DNA from: a phage
Sequence record: PZ445521.1
Length of the DNA stretch: 64,000 bases
Strand: one strand, 5' to 3'
In this document: positions 32,466 to 64,000 of the stretch, in pieces
How the letters are laid out: every line of letters begins with the position of its first letter
How positions within the stretch are numbered: the first letter of the stretch is position 1
Made by a program: the position numbers and the translations under genes
The notes under the pieces: generated by a model
The model's input: the letters and a program-made list of their open reading frames with translations, nothing else
What the model was told of the DNA's origin: nothing
Database searches by the model: none

Positions 32466-32494
32466 TTTATTCTCCAAATCCGTATCAGTAGTTG

Positions 32495-32613: not shown

Positions 32614-32635
32614 GAAAAAGGGACCCGGAGGTCCC
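32614..32635 (-). terminator. terminator hairpin downstream of gene 43
   Basis: Stem gggacc cgga ggtccc at 32620-32635 plus U-tract. Confidence 0.55.
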
Positions 32636-43528: not shown

Positions 43529-43549
43529 TTAATATCCTCATTGTTTTGG

Positions 43550-46380: not shown

Positions 46381-46636
46381 TGTAAACTGATTTTTTCAAC
46401 TTTCTTACTTCACCACGCAGTTGACGATTCAATTCATTCTTAACCTCTGAATCAACACCTCGCATACGTCGCCATTTATCTGAACGAAAAATGTTTTCAA
46501 CCATATCTTTATGACTTACCCCATCAGGAGCTTTACGCTTTCCGAAATAGTCATAATCACGCACTTTTAAGTCTTTACGACGATACGTTTTACCCATGGA
46601 GTTTAATTTCCTTAGCAACTGAACTAAATGCAGCAC
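46304..46636 (-). CDS. hypothetical basic protein, 110 aa
   Basis: ORF track; overlaps next ORF, start may be internal. Confidence 0.45.
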   Translation of the reverse strand: MLHLVQLLRKLNSMGKTYRRKDLKVRDYDYFGKRKAPDGVSHKDMVENIFRSDKWRRMRGVDSEVKNELNRQLRGEVRKLKKSVYIDDDFDYNTSQWVAKRKSNECYRYS

Positions 46637-46772
46637 GATCGCAAATCATGCGTTTATGTAACTTGAGTATAATATAGCAAACTTCAAAACTATTTACATG
46701 AGTAACACGAACAGCATTACCATTAATGAGATAATACTGTCCCTTTTTAATTTCTTTATCAACCATAACCAT
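46590..46772 (-). CDS. hypothetical protein, 60 aa
   Basis: ORF track; promoter upstream. Confidence 0.45.
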   Translation of the reverse strand: MVMVDKEIKKGQYYLINGNAVRVTHVNSFEVCYIILKLHKRMICDRAAFSSVAKEIKLHG

Positions 46773-46797
46773 ATCAATTCCTCAAAGGTAATTCATA

Positions 46798-46835
46798 TGT
46801 TAATAATACCACGGTTTGAACTTGTTGTAAACAAC
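46798..46835 (-). promoter_or_regulatory. early promoter (-35 TTTACA, -10 TATTAT)
   Basis: tgtaaa 46826-46831, ataata 46803-46808, 17-bp spacer. Confidence 0.55.
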
Positions 46836-46903
46836 TTTGTGAAAAATATTTTAGGGAATGATAAGAAAGGAACGATAGCTTAGAATGGTAATATACAGAA
46901 TGT

Positions 46904-47870: not shown

Positions 47871-48341
47871 TTAATCATGTGTCCACACCCCATCGGTATT
47901 TGACCAAAGTCGCTGATTATCTGATCCTCGCCACAGCTTTTTAGTCGGAAGATTTTTCTCATACTTCCCATCAATAATAACATCAACATATTTAAGCATT
48001 TCTAGTTGTTTAATATCTTCAAACTTATATCCTGTCCACAACCAAATGCTTTTATTGGGATAAAGATTTTTAATAGTTTGAACCACAGAGTGAATCACGT
48101 CTCTGTTATCAGGATAAAGAGGGTCACCTCCGGTTATAGTCAATCCTTCTATATAATCATTATTCAAACATTCAATTAATTGTTCTAGTGTTTCACCAGT
48201 GAATGGAACACCATTTCTAGCATTCCATGTTGATTTATTATAACACCCTTCGCATTTATGCAAACAACCTGTAACGAAAAGAACGACCCTGCATCCAGGG
48301 CCATTCACAAAATCACAGGGATAAAATCTATCGTAATTCAT
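47871..48341 (-). CDS. nrdG: anaerobic ribonucleotide reductase activase NrdG (radical SAM)
   Basis: 156-aa ORF with Cx3Cx2C (CLHKCEGC); 4-nt overlap with nrdD. Confidence 0.85.
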   Translation of the reverse strand: MNYDRFYPCDFVNGPGCRVVLFVTGCLHKCEGCYNKSTWNARNGVPFTGETLEQLIECLNNDYIEGLTITGGDPLYPDNRDVIHSVVQTIKNLYPNKSIWLWTGYKFEDIKQLEMLKYVDVIIDGKYEKNLPTKKLWRGSDNQRLWSNTDGVWTHD

Positions 48342-51153: not shown

Positions 51154-51276
51154 GTCCCATCTCCATATCAATTAAGTCATTTATCGTTGGTTCATTATAT
51201 ACTGTTTCTTCATCAGTGTAAACCGGTTCTTCCGGCTCTGGCTCTACAGTTTCCCATCTAGCCGCCCACCAAGGTT

Positions 51277-51996: not shown

Positions 51997-52256
51997 TTAA
52001 AGTATTCTCGCAATTGGTCAAATCCACCAATATGACTTCCATCAGGAGCAAATACCTGGGGCATTGTCAAGCCGATTTGAGTATCACGACCTAGTTTAGT
52101 CAGAAGCTCAGCGATTTTCTCATCATCAAAAACACCTTTTTCCGGCATAATGTTGATAAATTCAAACGGCTGTTTCTTCACGGTCAAAAGACGTTTTGCA
52201 TTATCGCAATACACACATTTATGAATGTTGCTATCATAACCATATACTTTAAACAT
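51993..52256 (-). CDS. nrdC: thioredoxin/glutaredoxin NrdC
   Basis: 87-aa ORF with CVYC active site, recognised as T4 thioredoxin. Confidence 0.85.
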   Translation of the reverse strand: MFKVYGYDSNIHKCVYCDNAKRLLTVKKQPFEFINIMPEKGVFDDEKIAELLTKLGRDTQIGLTMPQVFAPDGSHIGGFDQLREYFK

Positions 52257-52257
52257 A

Positions 52258-52500
52258 TTATTCCTTAATTCCTAGTACTTGTTTAAAAGTCTCGTCGTAA
52301 TCAAGACTTTGGCCCGTTTGTTCTTTATGTTTGTATATAATATCACTTACTTCTGATAGCATATTTTTATATGAACGAGTTAAAGCAGATTTAAGCACGC
52401 TGTATCTATCAGGAAATTTACCGTGTTCATTATAATAAGCTATTGCTAATTCACGGACTGCCTTTTCAGCAGCCTCCATATATTCTTTACGCTTGGTCAT
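52258..52500 (-). CDS. hypothetical protein, 80 aa
   Basis: ORF track. Confidence 0.5.
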
Positions 52501-52502
52501 TT

Positions 52503-52892
52503 TTAATCCAAAATATTATTAGGCATTGGTTGAACACTCACAAGTTCTTTAAAGAACTCAGTAGAGTCAGGCAATTTAACCATTTCCGGAGCATGCTTAC
52601 TGAATTTATGTTTACATTGACGGCATTTATATTCAAGCTCTGGTTTACGCCAGTTAATCAACTGAACTTGTTCAGTACCGCATTCAGGGCAATTAGGAAC
52701 GTTTTTAGAAGCTCTTTCACGTCGTTCAACCATAGCCATAATAGCATCCCATGCTGGAGGTTTAAAATCTAAATCGTCGCAGCCGTGAATCTTTCCACGC
52801 ATTTCCATATCATCTTCCTCACCAGCCATAATAATTTTAATTAAACTGGAATTACTTGAAGCTGCAATGTCTTCTAATAAACGCTTTTTCAT
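52503..52892 (-). CDS. zinc-ribbon protein, 129 aa
   Basis: CPECG ... CRQCKH motif. Confidence 0.5.
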
Positions 52893-53818
52893 TTCAATAC
52901 CTCAATAGCATTACGTAAACCATTTGCTTTTGCATTAAGAGCTTTTAACAATTTGGTGTGTTCTGCAATTTGGGCTTCAACTTCAATCAAACGGGCATTG
53001 AGATATTCACGTTCTTCACTCAGATTATCAACCTTTTCCACTTTAGGCTCTTTTACAACTGTCTTATATGTATTAGGGTTCTTCAGTTTAATTAGAATGC
53101 GTGAACTGTATAACATTGAACCATTATCTTCGGTTTCGTCATACATTTCCACTACGTCCATAATTTTTAACATCATGCGGAGTTTATAAGACAACGAACG
53201 AATAGTTTTGTTGTGCTTATTAATTTCTTTAGCTGTCATGGTGCCAAGATTACGTGAGTAATAATAAGGAACCTGGATATTAATTAATACTGATGAACCA
53301 CCTGGCTTGTGTGTTACTTCATCAGCAATAACCCAGTCCTTAACATGAACTGTATTTGTACGGTCATCGCCCGCGGTAAATAGTTTGCGAGCATGCTTAA
53401 AAAGCATATTCACTTGGGTATTGAATTGACAAGCAAATTTATCAGCAAATTTAGTTTCAGGAATGGTAGATAACCAATCAGCCAAATGGGTCTTTTTAAC
53501 ATCGTTAACAATAGTAAATTCAACCAAATCGGTTATAGATGTCGCAGTTTTAATGAATCTCGGCTTCATAAAGTTTTCAATGTTATCACGAGCTACAGTA
53601 GAAGATAACATACGAGAACGTTTAAACCATTCAAGCAAATTGCCTAACGAATGAGAATAAGCGTTTTGAGTATCTTTACAGATATGATTTTCCTGGCCAA
53701 CATATTGAAGGAAATCACGAAGAATATTATTGATTACTGCTCTGTGTCCTATCTGATAATTACGATGTTTAGTAATAAGACTGTCAAAATAATCAATATA
53801 ATGTTTACGAGTTTTCAT
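52889..53818 (-). CDS. coiled-coil family protein 1, 309 aa
   Basis: N-terminus MKTRKHYIDYF; C-terminal heptad coiled coil; tandem family member. Confidence 0.6.
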   Translation of the reverse strand: MKTRKHYIDYFDSLITKHRNYQIGHRAVINNILRDFLQYVGQENHICKDTQNAYSHSLGNLLEWFKRSRMLSSTVARDNIENFMKPRFIKTATSITDLVEFTIVNDVKKTHLADWLSTIPETKFADKFACQFNTQVNMLFKHARKLFTAGDDRTNTVHVKDWVIADEVTHKPGGSSVLINIQVPYYYSRNLGTMTAKEINKHNKTIRSLSYKLRMMLKIMDVVEMYDETEDNGSMLYSSRILIKLKNPNTYKTVVKEPKVEKVDNLSEEREYLNARLIEVEAQIAEHTKLLKALNAKANGLRNAIEVLK

Positions 53819-53870
53819 GTTCTTCTCACTTGGTTAATGATTTATACTCCGAGCCATCCTTGGCTTTAAA

Positions 53871-54872
53871 TTACTTAATTAACTGTAAAGCTTGTTCAAG
53901 ACGATCCAGGCGATTAACAGATTCTTCCCAAATCCTTTTAGCCTGCTCATATTCTTTCTGCGCTTTATTAGAAATTTCTAGAACTTCTTTATAAGCTTTT
54001 TCTAATGCAATAACTTCTGGACGAATTTCTACCGGTTCAGGCGAATCATCAAGATTATCCATTAGTTCCTCAAGGGTAGTTTCTTCTTTAGGAGTATTCA
54101 CAATTTCATCACATTTTTGTTGGTAAATTTCTTTATCAGTAGGTGAATAAGCACATTTCACTTCACGAAGACTAATTACAATTTTATATCCTTCCCAGCC
54201 GCATATATTCTTAAAAGGATATGTATGAATATTTTCTACTGTTTCCATACAAAGTAATGCGGTCTCTAATTGACGAGTTATAGTGCTAGCAATTGAGAAA
54301 AATTTATTAATATTCTTTTGGTTAGTTTCTGGTGTAAAAAATCCATAATTCACAAAAATAGATACTTTATTTTTATCAAGTTCATATTCTTTTATGATAA
54401 TCATGTCAGAAGCCAAAGGATGAATTTGACGATAATCACCATAACATAATTTAGAAGCTGATTTTAGAATTTGCTTCTTAAAAAGTCTGAAATTACTAAT
54501 CCAACGACGAGTAAAAATATTCTCAGGGTCTTCTTTATTATTAAGATGATAAGAATTAACATCACCGAACCAATTATATCCTACTACATCTTTGGTTCGT
54601 TTAATTTCTTTCCCAAAATTACCAAGAATATCCCGATTAACCAAATATGAAAGAAGACGAGACTCTTTAAAGGTTTTCTTGATAACATCTTTATCTACAC
54701 GACTAGAAATTTTACGAATTTCATGAATAAATTTAGTAGAAGAAACAATACTTGCATCAACACTATTGAGCCATTGATTGATAATAGAAAGAACGATATT
54801 TTGACCAAACATCGGTATAGCTTTATCATCAATAACGCTATTGAATGATTTGATATATTCGTTACGAGTCAT
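53871..54872 (-). CDS. coiled-coil family protein 2, about 333 aa
   Basis: Track ORF trimmed to MTRNEYIKSF (GAGGAG Shine-Dalgarno); shares FKKQILKSASKL-type block with next ORF; C-terminal coiled coil. Confidence 0.6.
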   Translation of the reverse strand: MTRNEYIKSFNSVIDDKAIPMFGQNIVLSIINQWLNSVDASIVSSTKFIHEIRKISSRVDKDVIKKTFKESRLLSYLVNRDILGNFGKEIKRTKDVVGYNWFGDVNSYHLNNKEDPENIFTRRWISNFRLFKKQILKSASKLCYGDYRQIHPLASDMIIIKEYELDKNKVSIFVNYGFFTPETNQKNINKFFSIASTITRQLETALLCMETVENIHTYPFKNICGWEGYKIVISLREVKCAYSPTDKEIYQQKCDEIVNTPKEETTLEELMDNLDDSPEPVEIRPEVIALEKAYKEVLEISNKAQKEYEQAKRIWEESVNRLDRLEQALQLIK

Positions 54873-54894
54873 ATTAATCTCCTCATTAGAAAGT

Positions 54895-54932
54895 AAGAAC
54901 ATTATACCACATCCTTGTGGCGAAGTAAACTA
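54895..54932 (-). promoter_or_regulatory. early promoter (-35 TTTACT, -10 TATAAT)
   Basis: agtaaa 54924-54929, attata 54901-54906, 17-bp spacer; near-identical to the promoter at 9908-9945. Confidence 0.55.
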
Positions 54933-55955
54933 GTTTAGTGCATTTAGTGCATTGTTCAGTTTAGAACGTTGCTTTGTCAGATTTTGAACCCTTGACTGAG
55001 CTTGTTCTAACACCTTTTCAGCTTCTAGCACTTCATTGGTCGCTTTAACGAGTTCATCATCTACTGCCTTAAGAGACTTCTCAATCGCGTCAGCGTGCCA
55101 TTTTTCTACAGGTTTAAGACTCGGATTTTCAACAGGAAGAAAATTCACTTTATTGAATTTCCATGCATCATTATTACCTGAACTATACATCCAAAATTTA
55201 GAATCGTTTGATGAGTAATTGGATAAATTTAAATTTAAGTTATCTTGCACTTCTTGCTTTTTCTCTTGCGGGACTTCGTCCTTTCTCAAAAAATCGTATT
55301 TAAATGAAACGATCATATCAAGTTCATATGTTGTCGTATCTAACTTAAATCGTTCAAAACGAGGTAAAATCTTAGATTGAACAGCAGCAACAACATCCAT
55401 ATACTTAAATGCTTCTGTCAACTGTGATTTAAGACATTCACAAATTGAAAGAGAATTTTTAGTATTAGGCTTAAAGCTAATTCGTGCAGTTCTATTATTT
55501 TCTTTAGATGGTCTTACTTCCATTTGAAGAGTATAACCATCAAATTTCAAATTCTTTAAGTTAATATCAGAACCTTTTAATCGACTAGCAGTAGACAAAA
55601 TTTGCTTTAATTGTTTACGGAATAGAGCAATAAATCTCCATTCAAGACGATAATGATTTGGATTAAAAAATCCTGTTGATAAATCAACCTTACTCTGACC
55701 AATGCCTTGAACAAATAGAGGATTTTTATAATCAATAGTTTTACAGAAATCGGTGAGCTGCTCACGAGCAGTCATTTGTGTAATATATCCCGCTTTACTA
55801 AAATGACGTAACCATTCACTGCTATTCATATATTTAAAGTGAATATCACGATTAACTTTATCAGGGTCTAAATTATTTTGGCACAAAAATGTCATAACAT
55901 CACGAGTATAGCTGGCATTACGAACCATATCTTCAATTTGAGAACGAGTTTTCAT
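54930..55955 (-). CDS. coiled-coil family protein 3, 341 aa
   Basis: MKTRSQIEDMV; RKQLKQILSTASRL block; C-terminal coiled coil. Confidence 0.6.
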   Translation of the reverse strand: MKTRSQIEDMVRNASYTRDVMTFLCQNNLDPDKVNRDIHFKYMNSSEWLRHFSKAGYITQMTAREQLTDFCKTIDYKNPLFVQGIGQSKVDLSTGFFNPNHYRLEWRFIALFRKQLKQILSTASRLKGSDINLKNLKFDGYTLQMEVRPSKENNRTARISFKPNTKNSLSICECLKSQLTEAFKYMDVVAAVQSKILPRFERFKLDTTTYELDMIVSFKYDFLRKDEVPQEKKQEVQDNLNLNLSNYSSNDSKFWMYSSGNNDAWKFNKVNFLPVENPSLKPVEKWHADAIEKSLKAVDDELVKATNEVLEAEKVLEQAQSRVQNLTKQRSKLNNALNALN

Positions 55956-55963
55956 GGTGTTCC

Positions 55964-56866
55964 TTAAGATTTAAGTAAATCAACAATTTTAATTAACTTT
56001 TCACGCTCAGATTTAGCTTTACTACTCAATCCAGATAGTCTGAATATTTCATCATCATATTGTTGAATAGAAATATTTAGCTCTTCTATTTGTTTACTGA
56101 AATAATCAATCTGCTCGGAATATTTTTCATTACTGCGAACTGGTACAGGTTTTGTAGGAAATTTAGTTAAACTGGATTCATCCGGGCGATAAATTAAAAT
56201 GCAATTTGAACCAATCGGGCATTTAGCACCAGATGAATATTCTAACGTTCCAGCTTCTTTTAAAACTTCAAAAGCTAAACAGAGATGATGCCCCATATTA
56301 ACATAATCTGTAGAGCGAGCTCTGACGTAATAATCATCGCCGCGAATACTAAATTTAAAGCATTTAAGGTCTTCTGTATTATTGGTCTTAAAAATCATTT
56401 GTTTATCTAGACCTTTAGCTAATCGAGCGCCTAATGCTAATAATCGTCGTTGATTTTCCCACAAATCCGTAATCATTTGATCGAATGATAATTTAGGCAT
56501 TAGTCGACCATAAAGGTCATATCCTTTATTATAATTGCGAAGGATTTCACTCGCATTAATACGAGACAACGCTCCAATTTTATTAAGGGCTTTCATGATG
56601 CGATTAGATAAACCCATTCCAGACCCATTTGTTCGTTGTAAATGTTTTTCTAATCCAAATCCAATATCAACTTTAAATTTATCTAAAATTTCAGCATGAA
56701 CATCTCTGTCAATAACATTCAAATCCAAAGTTGGGTTAAATCTATGAAAAAATTTATCTGGCTCTCCACGACGAAGTACAGTCCATTCATTTAATTTTTT
56801 ATTAACTAAAGATTTAATTACTGCATTGACATTATTAATTACTACTGACATATTTTTCTCACTCAA
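55964..56866 (-). CDS. coiled-coil protein, 300 aa
   Basis: ORF track; C-terminal coiled coil (QIEELNISIQQYDDEIFRL...). Confidence 0.6.
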   Translation of the reverse strand: MSEKNMSVVINNVNAVIKSLVNKKLNEWTVLRRGEPDKFFHRFNPTLDLNVIDRDVHAEILDKFKVDIGFGLEKHLQRTNGSGMGLSNRIMKALNKIGALSRINASEILRNYNKGYDLYGRLMPKLSFDQMITDLWENQRRLLALGARLAKGLDKQMIFKTNNTEDLKCFKFSIRGDDYYVRARSTDYVNMGHHLCLAFEVLKEAGTLEYSSGAKCPIGSNCILIYRPDESSLTKFPTKPVPVRSNEKYSEQIDYFSKQIEELNISIQQYDDEIFRLSGLSSKAKSEREKLIKIVDLLKS

Positions 56867-57267
56867 TTTTCAATTTTACTAAATACACAGAATATGATGG
56901 AAAAGACTATATAAGCACCGCATACAGATTGAACTAATACCATTCCAAAGAACCAAACAATATTATCAAACAATGTCTGTTTTACGTCGAAAGGACGTAA
57001 ACTTACAGTAATATTATCGCCTTTTTCTATTGATGAATACATCTCTGGTGAAATATATTCACTAAATCTATAACCGTCTTTGAGTTCATATACGGCAATA
57101 AACGATAAACTAGACCCCTTTCCTTGAGTTCCTGTAAGGGTATTAACTACAGTAACATCATAATCTTTATAATGCATATAATCATTAATTGCATAATAAC
57201 CATATGCAACTACTACACATAAACAACATATCAATAAATTCAATCTTTTAATTATCAACTGTTTCAT
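56863..57267 (-). CDS. membrane protein, 134 aa
   Basis: N- and C-terminal hydrophobic helices; 4-nt overlap coupling. Confidence 0.55.
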   Translation of the reverse strand: MKQLIIKRLNLLICCLCVVVAYGYYAINDYMHYKDYDVTVVNTLTGTQGKGSSLSFIAVYELKDGYRFSEYISPEMYSSIEKGDNITVSLRPFDVKQTLFDNIVWFFGMVLVQSVCGAYIVFSIIFCVFSKIEN

Positions 57268-57296
57268 AATAATCTCAATTAAAAGGGCTTAGAACC

Positions 57297-57320
57297 ATTA
57301 TACCATCCTTGGTATAAAGC
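57297..57320 (-). promoter_or_regulatory. middle promoter-like (GCTTTA, 12 bp, TATAAT)
   Basis: Minus strand reads CGCTTTATACCAAGGATGGTATAAT. Confidence 0.4.
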
Positions 57321-57322
57321 GG

Positions 57323-57850
57323 TTATGCGAGTACCGTCTTTAACCGTTCTTCAAACTTCCGAAGAGTATTTTGGCGTTCAGCTCTTTGCTTTTTGTAAGT
57401 TTCAATACGCTCTGAAATGAGAGTGTATCGTTCATTTACTGATTCTTTCATAAAATCAGGAATTTCACGAGAAGCTTTAATCTCATCAAATTTATCAATA
57501 ACAGCTTGCTCTTCAGCAATTAAGTTATCATACATCAAAATATCTTTCTTGATGAACTCAATATCTTCTTGAGTTACACGAGATAATTTAGATGCTTTAT
57601 CCTTTTTGTACTGTTCGTTAGTATCACGAGACCAGTGTAATGTACGATTTTTATTCGTATTCTTGTAAATTTCTACAATACCAATCTCATCAATAATAAC
57701 GATCCAATTCCAACGAGATTTGTAAATTTGTCCTCCGTCAACCGTGATTTCACCTCCGATTGAGATGTCATTAAAGAACTTGCTTTGTGCTTCAGATTTA
57801 AATTTACCATCGTTGTAATTTACCAGGTTGAAAATATCTTTAGCGTTCAT
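57323..57850 (-). CDS. hypothetical protein, 175 aa
   Basis: Track ORF trimmed to MNAKDIF after the promoter/leader; C-terminal coiled coil. Confidence 0.55.
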   Translation of the reverse strand: MNAKDIFNLVNYNDGKFKSEAQSKFFNDISIGGEITVDGGQIYKSRWNWIVIIDEIGIVEIYKNTNKNRTLHWSRDTNEQYKKDKASKLSRVTQEDIEFIKKDILMYDNLIAEEQAVIDKFDEIKASREIPDFMKESVNERYTLISERIETYKKQRAERQNTLRKFEERLKTVLA

Positions 57851-57871
57851 TTTGTGTTCCTCCGTAGTTGA

Positions 57872-57910
57872 TAGTTGTATAGTACCACAGAGGAACGGTC
57901 TTGTAAACAA
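57872..57910 (-). promoter_or_regulatory. early promoter cassette
   Basis: tgtaaa 57902-57907, atagta 57879-57884, 17-bp spacer. Confidence 0.6.
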
Positions 57911-58225
57911 CTAAAAGAAACTTCTTTCACAATTTTTTCCACTGAACCACGCACTCACTGCTTTCTTAGTCTCAGGAGCAGTGTTATCCATAAACCATTC
58001 AAAGGCAGCCTTTTTATGATTCTGGAGGGCTTCTCGGGCTTTAATCTGCTCACGGTCTATTAACACTAACATATGAGCCTTTCTTGTCACCATGGGCTTC
58101 TTATGATTTTTTGAATACTCCCAATCATTTGTCCATCGCATCGTTGTTGCGAACTGAAATACAGCTTCTTTAATTTTAGTTTCGTAAATTTCACGAGCCT
58201 TTGAGTATAACATCACTACCTCCAT
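57911..58225 (-). CDS. hypothetical protein, 104 aa
   Basis: ORF track. Confidence 0.5.
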   Translation of the reverse strand: MEVVMLYSKAREIYETKIKEAVFQFATTMRWTNDWEYSKNHKKPMVTRKAHMLVLIDREQIKAREALQNHKKAAFEWFMDNTAPETKKAVSAWFSGKNCERSFF

Positions 58226-58314
58226 TTATCAGTTTAATTCTAATCATCTTTTTGATGGCAGTCCATATAATCTATTTCTGAACTGCCTTTTTGTCATAGA
58301 AGGCCTCTTATGAA

Positions 58315-59283
58315 TTATTTCAGAAGAGTAACCTCAGCAATTTCTTCCCAACCGTTTTTGTCTGTCATAATAAAGTCAGCAAGATAAAGAGCAGTACGCA
58401 GTGAAACATTACGTAAACGATTAACATTGACTTTCATCCATGATAATGCTTTATAAGTTTCTTCATCAGAAAGACCGCGCTTTTGCATCATGTCAGTTGA
58501 AAGAATAACATCTTCAACCCTGACCATAATTTCTTCATTAGTGTGAACACCCAAATCCAAATAAACTGAGCGGGACACTAATGCTTGTAAATGTGGAGCA
58601 AGTTTAGTACCACGGTCTAATTCGCGGTCAATGTCAACGTTTGTGATAAAAACAATCGTTCCTTTAAATTCAAACTCACGCTCAATGCCTTTTTCTTCTA
58701 AGTAAGAAGATGCGGTGCTCCAGCAGACTTTACGGGTCTCTCCGGTGTCCAGAGCAGCTTTCAGAAGATTAAGAATGTCCATATCAGAGAAAACATCCAC
58801 ATCATCAATCAAAAGGACAGAATTCTCTTCACGATTATTCCAAAGCTGCTCATAAAGACCAATACCAGAGATTTTACCATTAATGCTTTTATATTCAATG
58901 TATCCAATATCATTTGCTTTATTTAAAGCTTTATCTAAAGAATACGTTTTACCAATACCCGCCGCACCAGAGATAATTAATGAACGAATATTTCCATTAA
59001 TAATACCATTCGTCATCATTCCCATAACATTAAATCTTTTATTAATGCGGGTTTTCATATCTTCATACGATTCTTTAACTTCTTCAACTTTTACACCATC
59101 ATATGAAATGTCTGATTTGTAAACCCAAACACCGCGACGTTTACCGTCAATTTCAACAAAAACTTTACCATCTCCTTGTGCATCTACCGGAGCATTATCT
59201 GGGAACCATTCGCCTAAGAGCTCAAAAGTTCCAGAGATTTCTTTACCGAAGTAGATACCCTTATTGATAGTTACAGTTTTCAT
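58315..59283 (-). CDS. P-loop ATPase (AAA-like), 322 aa
   Basis: Walker A GAAGIGKT and Walker B LLIDDVD after a roughly 100-aa N-terminal domain. Confidence 0.7.
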   Translation of the reverse strand: MKTVTINKGIYFGKEISGTFELLGEWFPDNAPVDAQGDGKVFVEIDGKRRGVWVYKSDISYDGVKVEEVKESYEDMKTRINKRFNVMGMMTNGIINGNIRSLIISGAAGIGKTYSLDKALNKANDIGYIEYKSINGKISGIGLYEQLWNNREENSVLLIDDVDVFSDMDILNLLKAALDTGETRKVCWSTASSYLEEKGIEREFEFKGTIVFITNVDIDRELDRGTKLAPHLQALVSRSVYLDLGVHTNEEIMVRVEDVILSTDMMQKRGLSDEETYKALSWMKVNVNRLRNVSLRTALYLADFIMTDKNGWEEIAEVTLLK

Positions 59284-59340
59284 TTTATTCTCCTTTGATT
59301 TGATAGGACTACTATAACATAGTCCTATCAGTTTGTATAC

Positions 59341-59541
59341 TTATTTTGACATTTCTTCGATGTCACGACGATACCCGTCACGAACTTCACGAAGAGCTTC
59401 AAGGCCACACATAGGCTCGATACCAGTAATGTGAACTTGATTAATCTGATACTCTACATCTTCTAACTGAGCGAAAACATAACGACGTTCAGCTGCACAA
59501 CCAGGTTTAGCTTTACCGAAACGTTTATTCAAAGTAGTCAT
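59341..59541 (-). CDS. hypothetical protein, 66 aa
   Basis: ORF track; first gene after the promoter at 59573-59611. Confidence 0.5.
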   Translation of the reverse strand: MTTLNKRFGKAKPGCAAERRYVFAQLEDVEYQINQVHITGIEPMCGLEALREVRDGYRRDIEEMSK

Positions 59542-59572
59542 TTTGTATCTCCAATTTACTCATTTGTTTTGA

Positions 59573-59611
59573 TAGTTGTATAGTACCATAAAGCTTTATG
59601 CTTGTAAACAG
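59573..59611 (-). promoter_or_regulatory. early promoter cassette
   Basis: tgtaaa 59603-59608, atagta 59580-59585, 17-bp spacer. Confidence 0.6.
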
Positions 59612-59630
59612 TTTTGTGAAAAATTTTTGA

Positions 59631-59657
59631 AATAAAAAAGGGAGCCCGAAGGCTCCC
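59631..59657 (-). terminator. intrinsic terminator downstream of the nucleotidyltransferase gene
   Basis: Stem gggagcc cgaa ggctccc at 59640-59657 followed by a U6 tract. Confidence 0.6.
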
Positions 59658-59659
59658 TA

Positions 59660-60673
59660 TCATTTATAATAACTTCGGTGGTTTTCAAGATAGACCTTCT
59701 CAAGGAAGTCATCCCAGAAACTCATGTCTACTGTTTTAGGCATACCGTTCTTAGAAGCTTCAGTAGATGCTGCTTCTACTTGATCGACCACATCTTCCAA
59801 AAACTCTTGAACTGTTTTAAATGGATGTTTACCCAACTTCACGTCGAGAATAAATGGAGCATCTTGAAGTGGATAGACTAAGTCACCAGTTTTGTAAATT
59901 TCCAATAGTTGAAGTCCACCACGACAAGCATGGCTCAGAGCTTTCCAGTCAATGCCTTCATTGGCTTCGGCCTTACGAGCGCGTTCACCATATTCAGCAT
60001 CTAATTTGTTCAGTGACTGCTTAAGCTCAATAAGAGAAAGAGTTGTCTGATATTTACGACCCAACACTGTGTAAAACGTCTGTGGGCCTGTTTTCTCATG
60101 ATTATGGAACACCCATTCACAGAATTCGTTTTCTGGAAGACGATGCTTAATATCTTCAACTTTAGTACGACGCTGCTTAATGGAACCGTCTTCTTGGTAA
60201 TCAACCCATTGCTCAGGGATTTGATTAACTACTTTCAATACATCACGTAATGCAGCCAAACGAGAACCCTTGACACCGTATTTAGAAGCTTGCTTGCGAA
60301 CATATCCTAAATAGGATTTCATGTTAGTCGTATAAAAACGAGAACGGTTGTCTTGAATAAACTTCCACACATCAGGCAAATCAGATTTAACCACTAGTTC
60401 AGGTGGAGTATGAAGCATATCTAATGCTACAGTTTCACCATCTGCAGCTAATTTAAAGAAATATTTAAGACTGTATAGTTCATGGTCAATATCATCTTTA
60501 GTGTTTTTAGATGATGTGTTGTTGGTGTTTTTACTCATGTGCTCTTTGACATTTCCGATAAGAATATCGCGAGCAGGAGGAACAAAAATTTCTTTAAAAT
60601 CTACATCAGATTCTGGGGTAGAAGTTCCATAAAGATGACTACCAAAATAGCTTTTCATTACTGTTTTCATCAT
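59660..60673 (-). CDS. MNT/ANT-type (Pol-beta superfamily) nucleotidyltransferase-like protein, 337 aa
   Basis: N-terminal GSHLYGTSTPESDVDF fits the GS-x3-G-x5-SD-x-D nucleotidyltransferase signature; long helical C-terminal region; start overlaps upstream membrane ORF (ATGA). Confidence 0.65.
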   Translation of the reverse strand: MMKTVMKSYFGSHLYGTSTPESDVDFKEIFVPPARDILIGNVKEHMSKNTNNTSSKNTKDDIDHELYSLKYFFKLAADGETVALDMLHTPPELVVKSDLPDVWKFIQDNRSRFYTTNMKSYLGYVRKQASKYGVKGSRLAALRDVLKVVNQIPEQWVDYQEDGSIKQRRTKVEDIKHRLPENEFCEWVFHNHEKTGPQTFYTVLGRKYQTTLSLIELKQSLNKLDAEYGERARKAEANEGIDWKALSHACRGGLQLLEIYKTGDLVYPLQDAPFILDVKLGKHPFKTVQEFLEDVVDQVEAASTEASKNGMPKTVDMSFWDDFLEKVYLENHRSYYK

Positions 60674-61131
60674 TCAGCCTTATATTCAATAACAGGACAT
60701 ACTTTAGCTTTACGAGCTTTTAAAAATTCGACGATAATCGATTTCTTGGGTTGAATAGGAGGTAAACCTTTATACGCTCTATCAATATTTTCTACGTGTA
60801 AAGCATAATCCTTTTTCCATTTATAATCTTTATATTTTTCACGCAAATGTGCAGGAATAACAAATGAACCGATAATAAGTAAAACAACCAAAAGTGCAAG
60901 TATAAATGCCGATGGAAGAAGAGTCCATAAACTACCGAAAATAAGCCAACGTTGTAGGCTTTCTGCACAAATAATTGTTAACCCTACGAGTATAGCACAC
61001 CCAAAAATAGAAACGAAAAATGTAGGAATGGCAATAGACCAAAAATATGCGCATAGTGTCTTAGGTCGTTGCCATTCGTCGTTAAACAATTTGAATAATT
61101 TATAATGCCAAGAGTTTTCATTAATAATCAT
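60670..61131 (-). CDS. membrane protein, 153 aa
   Basis: Two to three hydrophobic helices; translationally coupled to the nucleotidyltransferase ORF. Confidence 0.55.
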   Translation of the reverse strand: MIINENSWHYKLFKLFNDEWQRPKTLCAYFWSIAIPTFFVSIFGCAILVGLTIICAESLQRWLIFGSLWTLLPSAFILALLVVLLIIGSFVIPAHLREKYKDYKWKKDYALHVENIDRAYKGLPPIQPKKSIIVEFLKARKAKVCPVIEYKAE

Positions 61132-61133
61132 AA

Positions 61134-61655
61134 TTATCCTTTCATTGAAGGAGTAATGGTTGTTAAATACTTAATCATAGCTTCAGCTTCTGATTTTGAT
61201 AATGAAATTTCTCCATTGTTTTGACGAATAGAAATAAAATCCGGATGACGGTCACCACCAGCTTTTAAAACACACATATAAGTATCAACTTCACCTTCAA
61301 TATTTGAAATGATTGAAGCAGTTCCGCATGAATGTGGTTTTTGATAAATCAATGCAGCTTTTCTTCCACCATTTGACTGTTCATAGGCTTTTAATACATC
61401 AAACAAATCAGTTCTTTTATCAATAGCTAAAATGTTATTTTCATCTTCAATGTTAAATCCTTCGGATACTTCATAAAGCGTTACCCATAAATCACCGATG
61501 TCAATAACAGCATTTACTTTTCCACGGCTTTCAAGAGTATGACAAATTTTCTTGATTTCGTCATAACTCATTTTAATAATATCATCTCCTTGACTAAGGA
61601 AGATGTCATTTTTAAATTCAACACGAATTAAACCACTTTCACTTGAAATAAACAT
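61134..61655 (-). CDS. hypothetical protein, 173 aa (paralog pair)
   Basis: Shares GFNIE(D/S)E and a C-terminal block with the next ORF. Confidence 0.55.
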   Translation of the reverse strand: MFISSESGLIRVEFKNDIFLSQGDDIIKMSYDEIKKICHTLESRGKVNAVIDIGDLWVTLYEVSEGFNIEDENNILAIDKRTDLFDVLKAYEQSNGGRKAALIYQKPHSCGTASIISNIEGEVDTYMCVLKAGGDRHPDFISIRQNNGEISLSKSEAEAMIKYLTTITPSMKG

Positions 61656-61661
61656 ATTTCC

Positions 61662-62207
61662 TCACTTTGAAATCATAGTTGGAATAACAGAATCAAGATA
61701 AGTCTTTAGTGCAATAGCTTCGTCTTTGGTAAATGTGACAATATGTGCTCGAAAATCATCAATTTGACGAATAGTTAAGACATCTCCATCTTCATAACAT
61801 TTTGATACGTTTAAAACAGTTTCATCATTCTGATTGCAAGCGTTAGTAATAATAGCATTGCAATTTTTAAACCATTTTAAACTATGTTTTCTTTCATTAG
61901 AATAATAAAAATATTTAATCTTATCTATAAAACTATCCCAATGGATAACTGATAAGCATATTGACTCGCTTTCAATATTAAATCCTGGGCATGAAGAATA
62001 AAAATGAATTTTATGCTCATCATTAATGCTTACAATTTTATCAGTATAAGGATTTTCAATTTTGGTTAAATGAATGATTTCACTAGGCGTAAAATACAGC
62101 ATATCGTCTTCTTGTGTCAAACGATACATATTATTTACTTTTTCTATAGCCAATTCACCAAAAAGTGAACTAACTTCTAATACTAATCGTTTCGCCGCTA
62201 CCGTCAT
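61662..62207 (-). CDS. hypothetical protein, 181 aa (paralog pair)
   Basis: C-terminus TKDEAIALKTYLDSVIPTM versus SKSEAEAMIKYLTTITPSM in the neighbour. Confidence 0.55.
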   Translation of the reverse strand: MTVAAKRLVLEVSSLFGELAIEKVNNMYRLTQEDDMLYFTPSEIIHLTKIENPYTDKIVSINDEHKIHFYSSCPGFNIESESICLSVIHWDSFIDKIKYFYYSNERKHSLKWFKNCNAIITNACNQNDETVLNVSKCYEDGDVLTIRQIDDFRAHIVTFTKDEAIALKTYLDSVIPTMISK

Positions 62208-62332
62208 TACATACTCCTCTGAATCATATCAATAATGTTGTTCACCAGATTATAAGTAAACATTGGGTAATTATATTGAATCACCACATACACAACAAAC
62301 AAAACTTTCATTCTCTTCTCCTTGGCAGTTGA

Positions 62333-62370
62333 CAAGATTACTATACCATAACCTTGCCAACTTGTAAACC
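62333..62370 (-). promoter_or_regulatory. early promoter (-35 TTTACA, -10 TATAGT)
   Basis: tgtaaa 62362-62367, actata 62339-62344, 17-bp spacer. Confidence 0.5.
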
Positions 62371-62534
62371 ATTAAATGACGTTTTCGATAAAATTCTGAA
62401 GCTTTGTATGAGCATCAACCATGATTTTCATTTCTTCCTTTGCGAAAGCTGTACCTCTTTCACGAGAAGAACATTCATAGTCAGAAACTGCATTAGCATA
62501 TTCTTCAATTAGCTTCATTAAAAACATCTGCTTT

Positions 62535-62729
62535 TCAGTTTTCATTATTCCACCTAATCATTTCAAGATATTGAACTAACTTAGCTTTGGATTTATCCAA
62601 ATCCTTTTTAGCTGCTTCTATACCGTCGTATGAATATCCTTCACAATGCTCAACTGCTAATTGATATGAATCTATTTCAATATCACGTGCTAATTTAATG
62701 ATTTTTTCAAACTGTTCGCGTGTTAGCAT
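62535..62729 (-). CDS. hypothetical protein, 64 aa
   Basis: ORF track. Confidence 0.45.
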   Translation of the reverse strand: MLTREQFEKIIKLARDIEIDSYQLAVEHCEGYSYDGIEAAKKDLDKSKAKLVQYLEMIRWNNEN

Positions 62730-62731
62730 AC

Positions 62732-62971
62732 TTAAACTCTCGTATTATGATCGATAATTTCATCAAGAAACATATCTAACGCTTCTACAGCATTATTAAC
62801 TTTATCTTCAAGTTCTTCAATACTTTTATTTGCAATGCCTGACGAAAACCAAGCAAAGTCACTAAGTTCCTCATCTGCTTTACGAATTAAAGCTACCAAT
62901 TCCTTAATTTTATCCGCTTGTTCGATACTAATCATTATTCCACCACATATGAAAGAGAGAATATTGCACAC
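62732..62971 (-). CDS. hypothetical protein, 79 aa
   Basis: ORF track. Confidence 0.45.
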
Positions 62972-63123
62972 GCCATGTGAGTTGCAACTTCATCACACAT
63001 ATTATAACGTTTCTTAAGAAATTCTACAAGTTCTTCACTAGTAACTTCATCCATGTCGACGAAAAAATCACCATTAATGATGACGTAGATATTTCCTTCT
63101 TGATTAAGTGCTTCAATTTTCAT
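62935..63123 (-). CDS. hypothetical protein, about 62 aa
   Basis: Track ORF 62935-63168 trimmed to MKIEALNQ after the promoter/leader (AGAGGAGAACATC-ATG). Confidence 0.45.
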
Positions 63124-63144
63124 GATGTTCTCCTCTTTATCCGA

Positions 63145-63183
63145 TAGTTGTATAGTACCACAGCTCAAACGGAAAGTAAACCG
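63145..63183 (-). promoter_or_regulatory. early promoter cassette
   Basis: agtaaa 63175-63180, atagta 63152-63157, 17-bp spacer. Confidence 0.55.
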
Positions 63184-63190
63184 GTAAAAT

Positions 63191-63213
63191 GAAAAAAGTC
63201 TCCCGAAGGAGAC
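63191..63213 (-). terminator. intrinsic terminator
   Basis: Stem gtctcc cgaa ggagac at 63198-63213 followed by a U6 tract. Confidence 0.6.
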
Positions 63214-63218
63214 TAATG

Positions 63219-63605
63219 TTATTCGAGGGAAAGAAGATACTTACTCTGGTAAAACATTCCAGTAATATCATCTATCGTGCTTTGGATGGCTGGAGGCATT
63301 TCTTTATAAATGCTGTTAGATTGGTCTAGTATGTGATCAATCATTTTAATTGTGTCGGTAGGAAGTTTACTGGCATCTGGAATTGAAGGTGTGTATTTTC
63401 TACCAGAATACCCCAAATATTGCTCACCAAATTTATCAATCAAATCTGGCAACTCGGAGAAAATAAAATCGTATGCTTTGTGTCTAGCATAACTTTTAGT
63501 TTCAAAATGTGCAGAATGAAAATAAGCTTGTGCAGCCATTAATAAACCTAAGTATTCATCTGCCTTTGAAGGTTTTCCACTTTGTGAAAAGTCGCTGAAT
63601 TTCAT
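63219..63605 (-). CDS. hypothetical protein, 128 aa (rI.-1-like position)
   Basis: ORF track; 4-nt overlap with rI. Confidence 0.5.
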
Positions 63606-63895
63606 TCAGTCTCCAATTTAATGTTCATAATTCTAGCGTATGATTGTGCCATCTCCGCGCCTCGCTCTATACATTCAAAATCAGAAGAGCACGGGTCATT
63701 TTTATAGGTCGTTCTCATAAAACTATAGAATTGTTCAGACGATTCTACGCTTTTATTTTCAAAAAGCATATAAACGTGCCTAATACCAGATTCCATAAAT
63801 TTATCAAAATGAGGATCGACATTCGCTTCAATCGGTGGAGATAAAACAAATGACAATCCTAGCATGGCAAATAGTGCCGTTGCTTTTAAGGCCAT
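63602..63895 (-). CDS. rI: RI antiholin (lysis inhibition)
   Basis: 97-aa ORF with N-terminal signal-anchor MALKATALFAMLGLSFVLSP, recognised as T4 RI; TAGGAGG Shine-Dalgarno. Confidence 0.8.
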   Translation of the reverse strand: MALKATALFAMLGLSFVLSPPIEANVDPHFDKFMESGIRHVYMLFENKSVESSEQFYSFMRTTYKNDPCSSDFECIERGAEMAQSYARIMNIKLETE

Positions 63896-63910
63896 AAAGG
63901 CCTCCTATCA

Positions 63911-64000
63911 TTTTTGTCCTGTATTTACTTTATGCCGATGCACGGCCTTAACTTTATCAAGGTATTTTTCAAAATTTCGCAATCTAGTATAGTCTGCCGG
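63911..64000 (-). CDS. hypothetical protein, C-terminal 29 codons (rI.1-like position; runs off window end)
   Basis: Open minus-strand frame from the window edge to TGA at 63911-63913. Confidence 0.3.

Follow-up and report, generated by a model that had tools for sequence, protein, structure and literature searches.

Recurrent minus-strand cassettes in a Tequatrovirus genome are very probably T4-type early promoters joined to translation-initiation regions

The minus-strand sequence at positions 57872-57910 reads GTTTAC-aagaccgttcctctgtgg-TACTAT-acaactatcaactacGGAGGaacacaaaATG and lies upstream of nrdC.8, in a stretch of phage DNA of 64,000 nucleotides (record PZ445521.1) that is called the window below. 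The window is from a Tequatrovirus. Over 12 kb it matches Shigella phage JK38 at 100% identity. It runs colinear with two T4 stretches, 161.9-168.9 and 0-59.6 kb, with a DNA identity to T4 of about 92-98% in most shared blocks and 78-86% in three.

A preliminary description of this DNA had proposed a recurrent minus-strand module in about 20 copies and suggested a motif search, which bears it out. The pattern GTTTAC-N18-TANNNT occurs 20 times in the window, always on the minus strand, where 0.88 matches are expected; none of 100 shuffles reaches 20. The spacing is fixed, since other spacings from N14 to N22 give only 0-2 matches each, N17 after GTTTAC being represented by one chance match. The exact 17-bp spacer of that description is thus invariant with TTTAC(A/T) as the -35 hexamer, and corresponds to 18 bp counted after GTTTAC. 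A profile scan at a threshold of at least 14 bits finds 22 sites, every one of them on the minus strand, and so adds two degenerate copies at 13617-13646 (ATATAC) and 59311-59340 (GTATAC); the -35 GTTTAC is exact in the other 20. Seventeen of the 18 positions originally listed are strict matches and the last, given as 13610, is the real but degenerate copy at 13617-13646. The list had missed 26281-26310 (sp), 59311-59340 and two doubtful intragenic matches, 46358-46387 and 51194-51223. The cassettes and their associated elements are as follows; hairpins are folding predictions.

57848-57932, minus strand: focal cassette upstream of nrdC.8, with UP region, GTTTACA (57902-57908), 17-bp spacer, GTGG-TACTAT (-10 at 57879-57884), predicted +1 A at 57872, SD GGAGG and ATG at 57850
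57856-57896, minus strand: focal read-through hairpin; the 5' arm is the spacer GUUCCUCUGUGG, the 3' arm CUACGGAGGAAC includes the SD
1719-1816, minus strand: motA cassette, full leader ACAACTATCAACTACTGATAC, RegB-type SD GGAGATTAGAA
1818-1843, minus strand: intrinsic terminator directly upstream of the motA cassette (-15.7 kcal/mol, T6), an arrangement of the promoter-early stem-loop (PeSL) type
4873-4957, minus strand: ndd.4 cassette, paralogous to the focal cassette
4879-4923, minus strand: ndd.4 read-through hairpin, SD sequestered (-22.7 kcal/mol, z -4.8)
5380-5470, minus strand: cassette before an 87-aa ORF that replaces T4 ndd.6/ndd.5; SD GGAGAATAAAA, the exact RegB consensus
9886-9967, minus strand: rIIA.1 cassette, promoter inside the 3' end of gene 60
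13571-13670, minus strand: degenerate copy with -35 ATATAC and full leader
14160-14260, minus strand: motB cassette; hairpin 14194-14228 brackets the -10
15251-15334, minus strand: motB.2 cassette; hairpin 15261-15303 sequesters the SD GAGGAU (-23.7 kcal/mol, z -6.6)
19107-19197, minus strand: srd cassette (motif, T4 orthology and phage fPS-90)
20450-20532, minus strand: modB cassette (motif and T4 orthology)
20444-20489, minus strand: modB hairpin; the -10 (UAUGAU) and discriminator pair with SD and AUG (-18 kcal/mol, z -3.9)
22552-22647, minus strand: mrh.2 cassette, intrinsic terminator upstream at 22621-22647
26250-26334, minus strand: sp cassette (motif, T4 orthology and fPS-90)
26752-26837, minus strand: dmd cassette; hairpin 26771-26806 with the -10 in a 6-nt loop (-18.6 kcal/mol, z -4.6)
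32463-32635, minus strand: cassette driving a 78-aa ORF; full leader, exact RegB-type SD, terminator 32615-32635
46770-46856, minus strand: 55.6 cassette (motif, T4 orthology and fPS-90)
54870-54954, minus strand: nrdC.4 cassette (motif and T4 orthology)
59281-59364, minus strand: nrdC.10 cassette, weak -35 GTATAC; hairpin 59301-59330 brackets the -10
59539-59657, minus strand: cassette driving a 66-aa ORF inserted relative to T4, terminator upstream at 59634-59657
62309-62393, minus strand: mobD.2 cassette; hairpin 62327-62362 with the -10 in its loop (-19 kcal/mol, z -3.85)
63121-63213, minus strand: mobD.5 cassette, terminator upstream at 63192-63213
46358-46387, minus strand: doubtful match within gene 55.5, without TGn, 91 nt from the next start codon
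51194-51223, minus strand: doubtful match within gene 49.1, without TGn, upstream A+T 43%

The 22 sites share more than their -35 hexamer. The -10 is TACTAT in nine, TATAAT in seven, TATAGT in three, TATTAT in two and TATGAT in one. It is extended by TG at -15/-14 in 18 sites, and GTGG is present in eight. Upstream, TTTCA(C/T)AAA occurs in seven sites, and the 30 preceding nucleotides contain at least 70% A+T in 13 (background 65%). Start sites were placed by position and by orthology to T4, about 7 nt past the -10; the predicted +1 is an A in 15/22 sites. The leader holds GGAG in 17/22, and the start codon of the early gene lies 19-38 nt downstream of the site.

An A/T-rich UP element at -40 to -60 characterizes the set but is missing from both intragenic matches, which are compatible with the roughly 0.9 matches expected by chance. 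The one at 46358-46387 carries no promoter annotation in fPS-90 and may be a chance match or a weak internal promoter. The two copies with a degenerate -35 (13646 and 59340) may be weak promoters.

A scan of the window with the generic sigma-70 motif (TTGACA/TATAAT) revealed no enrichment, with 61 matches for 53 expected, and a combined generic sigma-70 and terminator scan did not discriminate the promoters. Only the T4 variant of the motif thus gives the promoter signal. This background-level result is all that speaks for the repeats being chance matches in A/T-rich DNA, a reading whose probability is practically nil: it is refuted by the excess over expectation and shuffles, by the restriction to one strand with fixed spacing, and by positions orthologous to those of T4.

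The sites of the window have one-to-one counterparts in T4, upstream of motA, ndd.4, rIIA.1, motB, motB.2, srd, modB, mrh.2, sp, dmd, imm.1, 55.6, nrdC.4, nrdC.8, nrdC.10, mobD.2 and mobD.5, with identical or nearly identical sequences; for the focal site, position -36 of the orthologue is T4 53943. A scan of the whole T4 genome gives 39 matches, again confined to the minus strand. Applied to T4, our +1 rule yields 133295, in agreement with 'early promoter Pe133295' of the T4 record, the one site compared with an annotated T4 start. On the minus strand of T4 (NC_000866.4) the rule further predicts +1 at 163637 (motA), 166771 (ndd.4), 167050, 2422, 7179 (motB), 8182 (motB.2), 11815 (srd), 13150 (modB), 15252, 20073 (sp), 20576 (dmd), 27044, 41670, 50937, 53907 (nrdC.8), 55348, 57954 (mobD.2), 58744, 62761 (regB) and 136300 (alc). 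In Yersinia phage fPS-90, nine orthologous sites are annotated 'predicted early promoter'. Differences from T4 are few: some promoters drive other first ORFs, such as the 78-aa ORF, which has no T4 counterpart and whose cassette drives imm.1 in T4, and an inserted ORF that brings a cassette of its own has displaced the nrdC.10 promoter.

The published consensus agrees with the module (PMC1524935, PMC2988021, PMC4122927), which confirms the core of the preliminary description, namely sigma-70 early promoters with UP element, GTTTAC(A/T), extended -10 and an SD-bearing leader. T4-like early promoters have GTTTAC at -36 to -31 and an UP element (Nolan et al. 2006, PMC1524935), and those of T4 were described as 'UP/-35/TGn/-10' promoters with additional regions of consensus (Hinton 2010, PMC2988021). 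The PeSLs of PST and T4 contain TTTACW-N17-TAYWAT (Comeau et al. 2014, PMC4122927). Differential RNA-seq of T4 found the early motif TGTG(A/G)TA(C/T)(A/T)AT upstream of mapped starts, with A at 60% of start sites (bioRxiv 10.1101/2024.04.04.588121; data set GSE255091). Our sites match T4 early promoters (Pe) in the position of GTTTAC, the A/T-rich UP region, TGn, TAnnnT at -12 to -7, the fixed spacing, the single strand and the early-gene orthologues downstream; nothing of substance differs. We conclude that the repeats are, with high probability, T4-type phage early promoters, each forming one package with the region that initiates translation of the first gene under its control.

As published for T4, such promoters combine multiple contacts. 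Directly after DNA injection, unmodified host sigma-70 RNA polymerase would bind the cassettes, its alpha C-terminal domains touching the A/T-rich UP element and sigma regions 4, 3 and 2 contacting GTTTAC(A/T), TGn and TAnnnT, respectively. Judged from position, and in line with the Pe133295 numbering, the first transcribed nucleotide would be about 7 nt past the -10 and in most cases the A of cTATCAAC. The unstructured leader of 19-38 nt would carry the SD, usually GGAG with an A-rich tail, and the phage RegB/S1 endonuclease would target this SD region, shutting off the early messages. Both the early promoter class and the PeSL cassette have long been described, and the finding as stated is not new biology. 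Rediscovering them from raw sequence is of use to annotators, since such promoters are left unmarked in most GenBank entries for these phages.

A conserved transcribed leader had been reported in many copies, which was generous: the 15-mer ACAACTATCAACTAC is exact in only three, with 2-3 mismatches in a few further copies, and CTATCAA is shared by about 8/22. Nor is the segment wholly transcribed. Its ACAACT occupies -6 to -1, upstream of +1, and is therefore untranscribed promoter DNA. The peptide GTIQLSTT, noted in six-frame translations, is indeed the translation of GGTACTATACAACTATCAACTAC. As for a shared 5' UTR function in processing or translational control, the leader shows no structure, and the suggested function is one already described: the GGAG and A-rich tail correspond to a known RegB/S1 site.

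With the transcribed part AUCAACUAC..., six of eight leaders fold at 0 to -0.6 kcal/mol and the other two at -3.3 and -4.7 kcal/mol; z-scores of the eight range from -0.5 to +1.3, so that none is more stable than its shuffles. A structured leader was rejected, including a 5'-terminal AUCA/UGAU hairpin that could have shielded the RNA from RNase E but reaches only -0.6 kcal/mol. An Rfam scan of the whole window returned no match, and the literal leader sequence gave no phage match in a literature search.

These results bear on the idea that ACAACTATCAACTAC(T)GATAC serves as a leader dedicated to regulation in cis, as a structured RNA or as a regulator binding site; the quasi-palindrome ATCA-N5-TGAT (+1 to +13), for instance, could be an early shut-off operator. 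Paralogous leaders are at least 70% identical in 16/231 pairs, against 3/231 for spacers, the segment is found 2-7 times per genome across 542 phage records, and the shut-off of early promoters has been described as incompletely understood (PMC3014915). We nonetheless judge such a leader very improbable. The first 6 nt of the segment precede +1, the leaders are unstructured and without Rfam match, and only about 8/22 cassettes have the segment, though every early promoter shuts off. RegB requires no information 5' of GGAG (PMC1702504). In three genera the core CCTATCAA recurs as a start-site consensus at a fixed position, and in several cassettes the segment forms the loop or 3' arm of a spacer-leader hairpin. 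We conclude that AUCAACUAC is a start-site consensus shared across genera, found also in Mosigvirus and Dhakavirus, and not a special leader.

The part of the leader with a known target motif is the GGAG. RegB/S1 cleaves at GGAGRAYARAA, between the second G and the A (Durand et al. 2006, PMC1702504; Uzan and Miller 2010, PMC3014915), and by sequence match the GGAG with the A-rich leader part is this known site. Exact GGAGAATAAAA, the T4 optimum, occurs in four leaders, and four more are one mismatch from GGAGRAYARAA. The GGAG of 17/22 leaders lies in or beside the SD, and the leaders are predicted to be mostly single-stranded in transcripts from their own promoter. Several SDs, such as GGAGGAACACA at the focal site, match the consensus less well. 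In T4, motA and motB are good RegB substrates, nrdC.8 is moderately cleaved and the GGAU of motB.2 is cut (PMC1702504); the poorer focal SD is consistent with moderate cleavage of nrdC.8.

PeSL cassettes (Arbiol et al. 2010, PMC2839356; Comeau et al. 2014, PMC4122927) combine an A/T-rich region, early promoter, stem-loop, SD and ATG, are repeated and are enriched at indels between close relatives. The cassettes of the window resemble them in all these respects. A stable stem-loop accompanies early promoter, SD and ATG in 14/22, as five upstream terminators and nine promoter-overlapping hairpins, and of 22 breaks in colinearity with T4, four have their start within a cassette (P = 0.0036). There are also differences. 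A figure legend on PST/T4 places the stem-loops just upstream of the promoter, whereas here they lie across it in 9/22, and in four of these nine the SD is the 3' arm. The published reading is termination or attenuation plus recombination, not gating of SD or RegB; in RB49, stem-loops may overlap the -10.

The cassettes also constitute repeated homologous DNA, with spacer and leader families in mosaic combinations, in accordance with the published view of PeSLs. The cassette at 32532 joins the spacer family of 4933/57908 to the leader family of 5446, whose own spacer core is common to 9943 and 54930. ORF insertions relative to T4 begin right after GGAGAATAAAATGAAA or inside the leader, and mini-circle crossovers in RB49 map between the -10 and SD/ATG (PMC2839356). 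There is accordingly not far from an even chance that the copies owe their extended identity, seen in shared spacers, identical leaders and SD-ATG, to recombination or gene conversion by PeSL shuffling as a side effect, rather than to selection on each nucleotide. Position-specific conservation, however, persists across genera whose spacers have fully diverged, and the complementarity of spacer and leader is kept by compensatory change, which requires selection and not copying alone. Shuffling is compatible with the identification as T4-type early promoters; the two do not exclude each other.

Folding predicts, for 9/22 cassettes, base pairing between the promoter spacer and the leader or SD of the same cassette. 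The 5' arm of these hairpins is the promoter spacer, upstream of the cassette's own start, and the hairpin is thus confined to read-through RNA. These 5' arms lie at -30 to -13 (-12 to +2 in modB), and transcripts from the cassettes' own promoters fold at only 0 to -1.4 kcal/mol. At the focal site, the longer RNA is predicted to form a hairpin of -19.4 kcal/mol (z -4.86, none of 200 shuffles equally stable) with the -10 and the start region in its loop; for RNA begun at +1 the value is 0 kcal/mol. SD or AUG are predicted to be paired in the longer transcripts of ndd.4, motB.2, modB and nrdC.8 (-18 to -23.7 kcal/mol, z -3.9 to -6.6). In the degenerate copy at 13617-13646, spacer and leader are exact reverse complements of each other and form a predicted stem of 13 bp at 13598-13640. 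Strong structure upstream of the gene is found for 6/21 genes with a Pe and for 3/86 without.

Spacer and leader covary across genera. At nrdC.8, Dhakavirus orthologues pair via different sequences; at motB, Dhakavirus-type orthologues retain a different stem; at mobD.2, the Mosigvirus-type orthologue has a different, compensated one. In an alignment drawn from cassettes already seen to fold, 95.5% of cells are paired (76.2% in shuffles) and both sides have changed in 5/11 pairs. Because of this preselection, the unbiased support comes from a partner-swap test of spacer-leader pairing, with z = -9.2. For polymorphism statistics, the IMG/VR sample comprised 8-11 relatives per gene. A DNA cruciform was rejected, since close relatives differ by G.U-compatible changes of the sense strand (17 WC/G.U interchanges vs 4 A.C), which would be C.A mismatches on the other strand.

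From thermodynamic prediction and comparative sequence, supported by covariation, we infer an added layer: at about 40% of the cassettes, transcripts from upstream would fold a stable hairpin, and those from the cassette's own promoter would stay open. Tentatively, and with clearly less than even confidence, we propose that in about 40% of Tevenvirinae cassettes the spacer serves as an anti-leader or anti-SD. The read-through helix of -18 to -24 kcal/mol would, in the SD class, bury the SD and RegB site. This would tie translation and RegB sensitivity (nrdC.8, ndd.4, motB.2 and modB; regB and alc in T4) to transcript origin, confine expression to the immediate-early burst and replace an upstream terminator as insulator. 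We did not find an SD-gating reading of promoter-overlapping stem-loops in print.

The same hairpins might instead be attenuators or terminators of upstream transcription, as has been proposed for the PeSLs of RB49 and phi1, and not gates of translation or RegB. Stem-loops of those phages lie between -35 and -10 or over the -10, and one of them lowered the expression of a downstream lacZ to the same degree as rrnB T1 did (Arbiol et al. 2010, PMC2839356). In the window, upstream terminators accompany 0/9 hairpin cassettes vs 5/13 others, and in all of T4 none of 35 sites has both (p = 0.031), a mutual exclusion that fits two ways to insulate. Against attenuation, 0/9 hairpins are followed by a U-tract and 0/9 resemble a terminator when the sense strand is scanned. 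In 4/9 the 3' arm coincides exactly with the SD (plus the AUG in modB), and in other genera this arm tracks the SD while the remaining stem changes, which a terminator would not need. Attenuation thus appears possible but rather unlikely for these hairpins as a whole; those that bracket the -10 without touching the SD are compatible with it.

If the proposed gating by transcript origin is correct, the same DNA would act both as promoter and as a switch responding to the point of origin of a transcript. The spacer of a very strong promoter, usually treated as free sequence, here appears selected to pair with the downstream ribosome-binding site. Gating would help to explain the short-burst expression of dense early genes with many read-through transcripts, the RegB resistance of some GGAG sites and the 'additional regions of consensus' of T4 early promoters.

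A related control is known from T4 e, soc, 49 and I-TevI, with promoters inside hairpins (Uzan and Miller 2010, section 29). There, as predicted here, a helix in the long transcript buries SD/AUG, and a promoter in or at its 5' arm yields a shorter, open transcript. Their embedded promoters are late (gp55) with late-only translation, whereas the present ones are sigma-70 early promoters and translation would be early-only. Having no late promoter, the early hairpins are at most a similarly working variant of this group, not members; if gating holds, they would be its early-phase mirror image. Gene 49 itself lies in the window and was recovered as a positive control in the scan for structured upstream regions.

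Over bases 52000-64000 the window matches Shigella phage JK38 at 100% identity, and many Tequatrovirus genomes at about 97% (sequence search); its bases 1-12000 hold rIIA, the topoisomerase genes, rIIB, motA and ndd. By local alignment, its colinear counterpart is T4 161885-168903 followed by 1-59600, with block identities of 92-98% in most blocks and 78-86% in three, interrupted by about 22 indel or replacement breaks. The minus strand carries all the genes. Judged from sequence, the window is the classical T4 early region. Homing-endonuclease elements form the bulk of the large differences: the mobA/60.1 insertion (the gene 60-39 split), segF, segA/beta-gt, mobB, mobC, the nrdD intron with I-TevII, and mobD are absent or replaced.

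Homing-element differences from T4 (comparison with T4)
10278-10343
22937-22983
29756-30703
43519-43544
48321-48341
49617-49620
60674-61637

The focal cassette, upstream of nrdC.8, reads GTTTAC-aagaccgttcctctgtgg-TACTAT-acaactatcaactacGGAGGaacacaaaATG on the minus strand (57908; cassettes are numbered by the first base of GTTTAC or its degenerate form). The pattern GTTTAC-N18-TANNNT occurs 20 times in the window, exclusively on this strand, against 0.88 expected; 0 of 100 shuffles reach 20, and the other spacings from N14 to N22 give 0-2 matches apiece. The exact 17-bp spacer of the preliminary description holds with TTTAC(A/T) as the -35 hexamer. A profile built from the sites retrieves 22 minus-strand and 0 plus-strand sites at a cut-off of ≥14 bits. 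Seventeen of the 18 positions first listed are strict matches, and the last is a genuine copy, 13646, with a degenerate -35 (ATATAC); the list lacked the sp promoter 26310, the GTATAC copy 59340 (nrdC.10) and the intragenic matches 46387 and 51223. Neither of these last two has TGn or an A/T-rich stretch upstream, and they may represent the roughly one match expected by chance. Among the 22 sites, the -10 is TACTAT in 9 and TATAAT in 7; TG at -15/-14 is found in 18, GTGG in 8, TTTCA(C/T)AAA in 7, a leader GGAG in 17 and A at the predicted +1 in 15. The peptide GTIQLSTT does come from the cassette, as had been proposed: GGTACTATACAACTATCAACTAC translates to it.

The sites map to orthologous T4 positions upstream of motA, ndd.4, ndd.6, rIIA.1, motB, motB.2, srd, modB, mrh.2, sp, dmd, imm.1, 55.6, nrdC.4, nrdC.8, nrdC.10, mobD.2 and mobD.5, where the T4 sequence is identical or near-identical; the complete T4 genome has 39 matches to the pattern on the minus strand and 0 on the plus strand. 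With +1 set at the seventh base past the -10, the T4 site with GTTTAC at 133331 starts exactly at 133295, and the T4 GenBank record names 'early promoter Pe133295'. The suggested comparison with the published consensus shows agreement: GTTTAC at -36 to -31 with an A-rich UP region (PMC1524935), 'UP/-35/TGn/-10' with additional regions of consensus (PMC2988021), and TTTACW-N17-TAYWAT ending in a Shine-Dalgarno sequence (SD) and start codon in promoter-early stem-loop (PeSL) cassettes (PMC4122927). In T4 dRNA-seq, mapped start sites are preceded by the early motif TGTG(A/G)TA(C/T)(A/T)AT, and A is the preferred +1 base (bioRxiv 10.1101/2024.04.04.588121), and the GenBank record of Yersinia phage fPS-90 carries 'predicted early promoter' at nine orthologous sites. 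Because these lines converge, the sites can be securely identified, by comparison, as T4 early promoters with SD-bearing leaders. The repeated cassette is thus an already known feature; multi-contact recognition by sigma-70 polymerase and stimulation by Alt are established for T4 early promoters, and it is likewise established for T4 that RegB cuts GGAG SDs and that shuffling accompanies PeSLs.

ACAACT, previously taken for transcribed leader, sits at -6 to -1 and is untranscribed. The leader said to be conserved in many copies is exact as a 15-mer in only 3 (1792, at motA; 32532; 57908), CTATCAA recurring in about 8. Across 57 non-redundant cassettes of Tequatrovirus, Mosigvirus and Dhakavirus, the start-region consensus is position-specific, C(-3) C(-2) T(-1) A(+1) T C A A; the conserved segment is a start-site feature of the promoter class, not a leader of a special kind. 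When the leader is folded from +1, six of eight tested copies give 0 to -0.6 kcal/mol and the other two -3.3 and -4.7, none of the eight exceeding shuffles in stability; an Rfam search found nothing. In the proposed shared 5' UTR element, the SD is the portion that has a known function, as a RegB target. This phage endonuclease, with ribosomal protein S1, cleaves GG^AG where an A-rich tail follows (consensus GGAGRAYARAA; commonest T4 form GGAGAAUAAAA) and needs no information 5' of GGAG (PMC3014915, PMC1702504). GGAGAATAAAA is exact in 4 window leaders and within one mismatch in 4 more. In T4, RegB cuts motA and motB well and also cuts motB.2 (GGAU); nrdC.8, orthologue of the focal site, is 'moderately cleaved' (PMC1702504).

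The cassettes also behave as repeated DNA. The 46-nt segment from -10 to ATG of the 32532 type occurs at 2353 places in 542 phage records, and spacer families are paired with leader families as a mosaic in the window. Breaks in T4 colinearity start inside a cassette at 4 of the 22 (binomial P = 0.0036), and ORFs extra to T4 sit directly after GGAGAATAAAATGAAA or within the leader, as does the 66-aa ORF between 59609 and 59340. Five cassettes have an intrinsic terminator directly upstream. Mosaicism, terminators and insertions together are the PeSL picture; in RB49, the mapped PeSL crossovers fall in the interval from the -10 to the SD or ATG (PMC2839356).

Upstream intrinsic terminators
1818-1843, motA
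22621-22647, mrh.2
32615-32635, cassette 32532
59634-59657, cassette 59609
63192-63213, mobD.5

Small ORFs absent or different in T4
59341-59609, 66 aa
32229-32465, 78 aa
5119-5382, 87 aa
13304-13573, 89 aa

Each of these ORFs starts directly after a cassette SD-ATG, and T4 homology ends inside the leader or just past ATGAAA. Just inside the 78-aa ORF, AAAATTGTTATG (32451-32462, minus strand) coincides with nucleotides 1-12 of the RegA SELEX consensus aaAAUUGUUAUGUAA (given in PMC3014915); translation may in fact begin at the second ATG of this ORF, which a RegA operator would then cover.

Inverted repeats flank the -10 at some sites, and the predicted hairpins form two classes.

Predicted hairpins, minus strand, SD pairing
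4879-4923, ndd.4
15261-15303, motB.2
20444-20489, modB
57856-57896, nrdC.8

Predicted hairpins, minus strand, bracketing the -10
13598-13640, cassette 13646
14194-14228, motB
26771-26806, dmd
59301-59330, cassette 59340
62327-62362, mobD.2

Folding -36 to +34, as in a transcript arriving from upstream, gives -17.7 to -23.7 kcal/mol (z -3.3 to -5.9) in 9 of 22 cassettes; the leaders of these nine, folded from +1, give 0 to -4 kcal/mol, and a second round of folding confirmed the result. Tested systematically against shuffles, spacer-to-leader stems reach p ≤0.001 in six cassettes. The predicted hairpins, with the promoter spacer as 5' arm and leader or SD as 3' arm, can form only in read-through RNA. 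In the first class the SD itself is the 3' arm; at modB this arm takes in the AUG as well and pairs with an atypical -10, TATGAT. In the second class the stem flanks the -10 and leaves the SD free. Together with the discriminator, the modB TATGAT complements GGAGGCUAUCAUG; the -10 thus belongs to the arm predicted to occlude the SD and start codon of modB. In a control fold of the 68-nt regions upstream of 107 gene starts, strong structure (z ≤-3) occurs at 6 of the 21 genes that have an early promoter, against 3 of the 86 that lack one (Fisher p = 0.0017). One of these three is gene 49 (~50625; z -3.3, SD 97% paired), which fits its published SD-sequestering hairpin. The 45.2 upstream region (~38948), also without an early promoter, folds at -20.8 kcal/mol (z -5.8).

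In orthologous cassettes of other genera, pairing is kept while sequences differ. The nrdC.8 arms are TTCCTCTGTGG/CTACGGAGGAA in Tequatrovirus and ATCTCCAGTAG/CTACTGGAGGT in Dhakavirus, and Mosigvirus has a -10-bracketing stem, GGTCTAT/ATAGACC, in place of the SD stem; likewise TTCCTCGGTTAGTT.../...AGCTACTGAGGA faces TTCTCCTCATG/CATGAGGAGAA at motB.2, and GTTGACAAGATT/AATCTTGTCAAC faces TTGGTAGGATT/AGTCCTACCAA at mobD.2. Over 60 non-redundant cassettes, the mean duplex energy is -9.84 kcal/mol when each spacer meets its own leader and -7.0 when partners are swapped (z = -9.2; none of 10000 permutations as low), and 18 cassettes reach ≤-12 where 5 are expected. An SD-sequestering alignment of ten cassettes from three genera has 95.5% of cells paired against 76.2% in shuffles (0/500), with 5 of 11 pairs changed on both sides and slid registers pairing at 45-60%; since these ten were chosen because they fold, the partner swap is the unbiased test. 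By these measures changes in the spacer go together with changes in the leader across Tequatrovirus, Mosigvirus and Dhakavirus. Stem polymorphisms interchange Watson-Crick and G.U pairs 17 times against 4 for A.C, which points to sense-strand RNA and disfavours a DNA cruciform.

Upstream terminators and promoter-overlapping hairpins never coincide in the window or in T4: a terminator precedes 0 of 9 hairpin cassettes and 5 of 13 others, and of the 35 sites in whole T4, 13 have a hairpin and 7 a terminator, no site having both (p = 0.031). At the T4 regB promoter (62740-62797), the spacer TTTTCCTCTTGACTG pairs with regB's own SD CAGTTAAGAGGAGAA, a reported RegB cut site in regB's own mRNA; at the alc promoter (136275-136336), the spacer pairs with the alc SD.

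We infer that, in cassettes without an insulating terminator, the spacer was selected to pair with the leader. Read-through RNA would adopt a closed structure, which in the SD class should block ribosome binding and also RegB cleavage, since structure protects against RegB (PMC3014915). The cassette's own transcript would be open, translated and then cut by RegB, thereby confining expression to the immediate-early burst. Such hairpins would mirror those formed at the late promoters of e, soc, 49 and I-TevI (PMC3014915). The -10-bracketing class shows no U-tract and no sense-strand call in a terminator scan; its function may be attenuation, as proposed for RB49 PeSL stem-loops (PMC2839356), or RNA-end protection.

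Stem-loops overlapping PeSL promoters are already published for RB49/phi1, and two 2010 T4 reviews list SD sequestration for late-promoter cases only. We found no description of early-promoter spacers as anti-SD in the literature searched, which did not extend to Miller et al. 2003 or to older work on T4; this reading may be a novel case, or may have been described before.

The nrdC.10 cassette hairpin receives a terminator-like call on the opposite, plus strand (59300-59331), where the complement of GTATACAAA gives a T-rich tail; it might halt antisense transcription.
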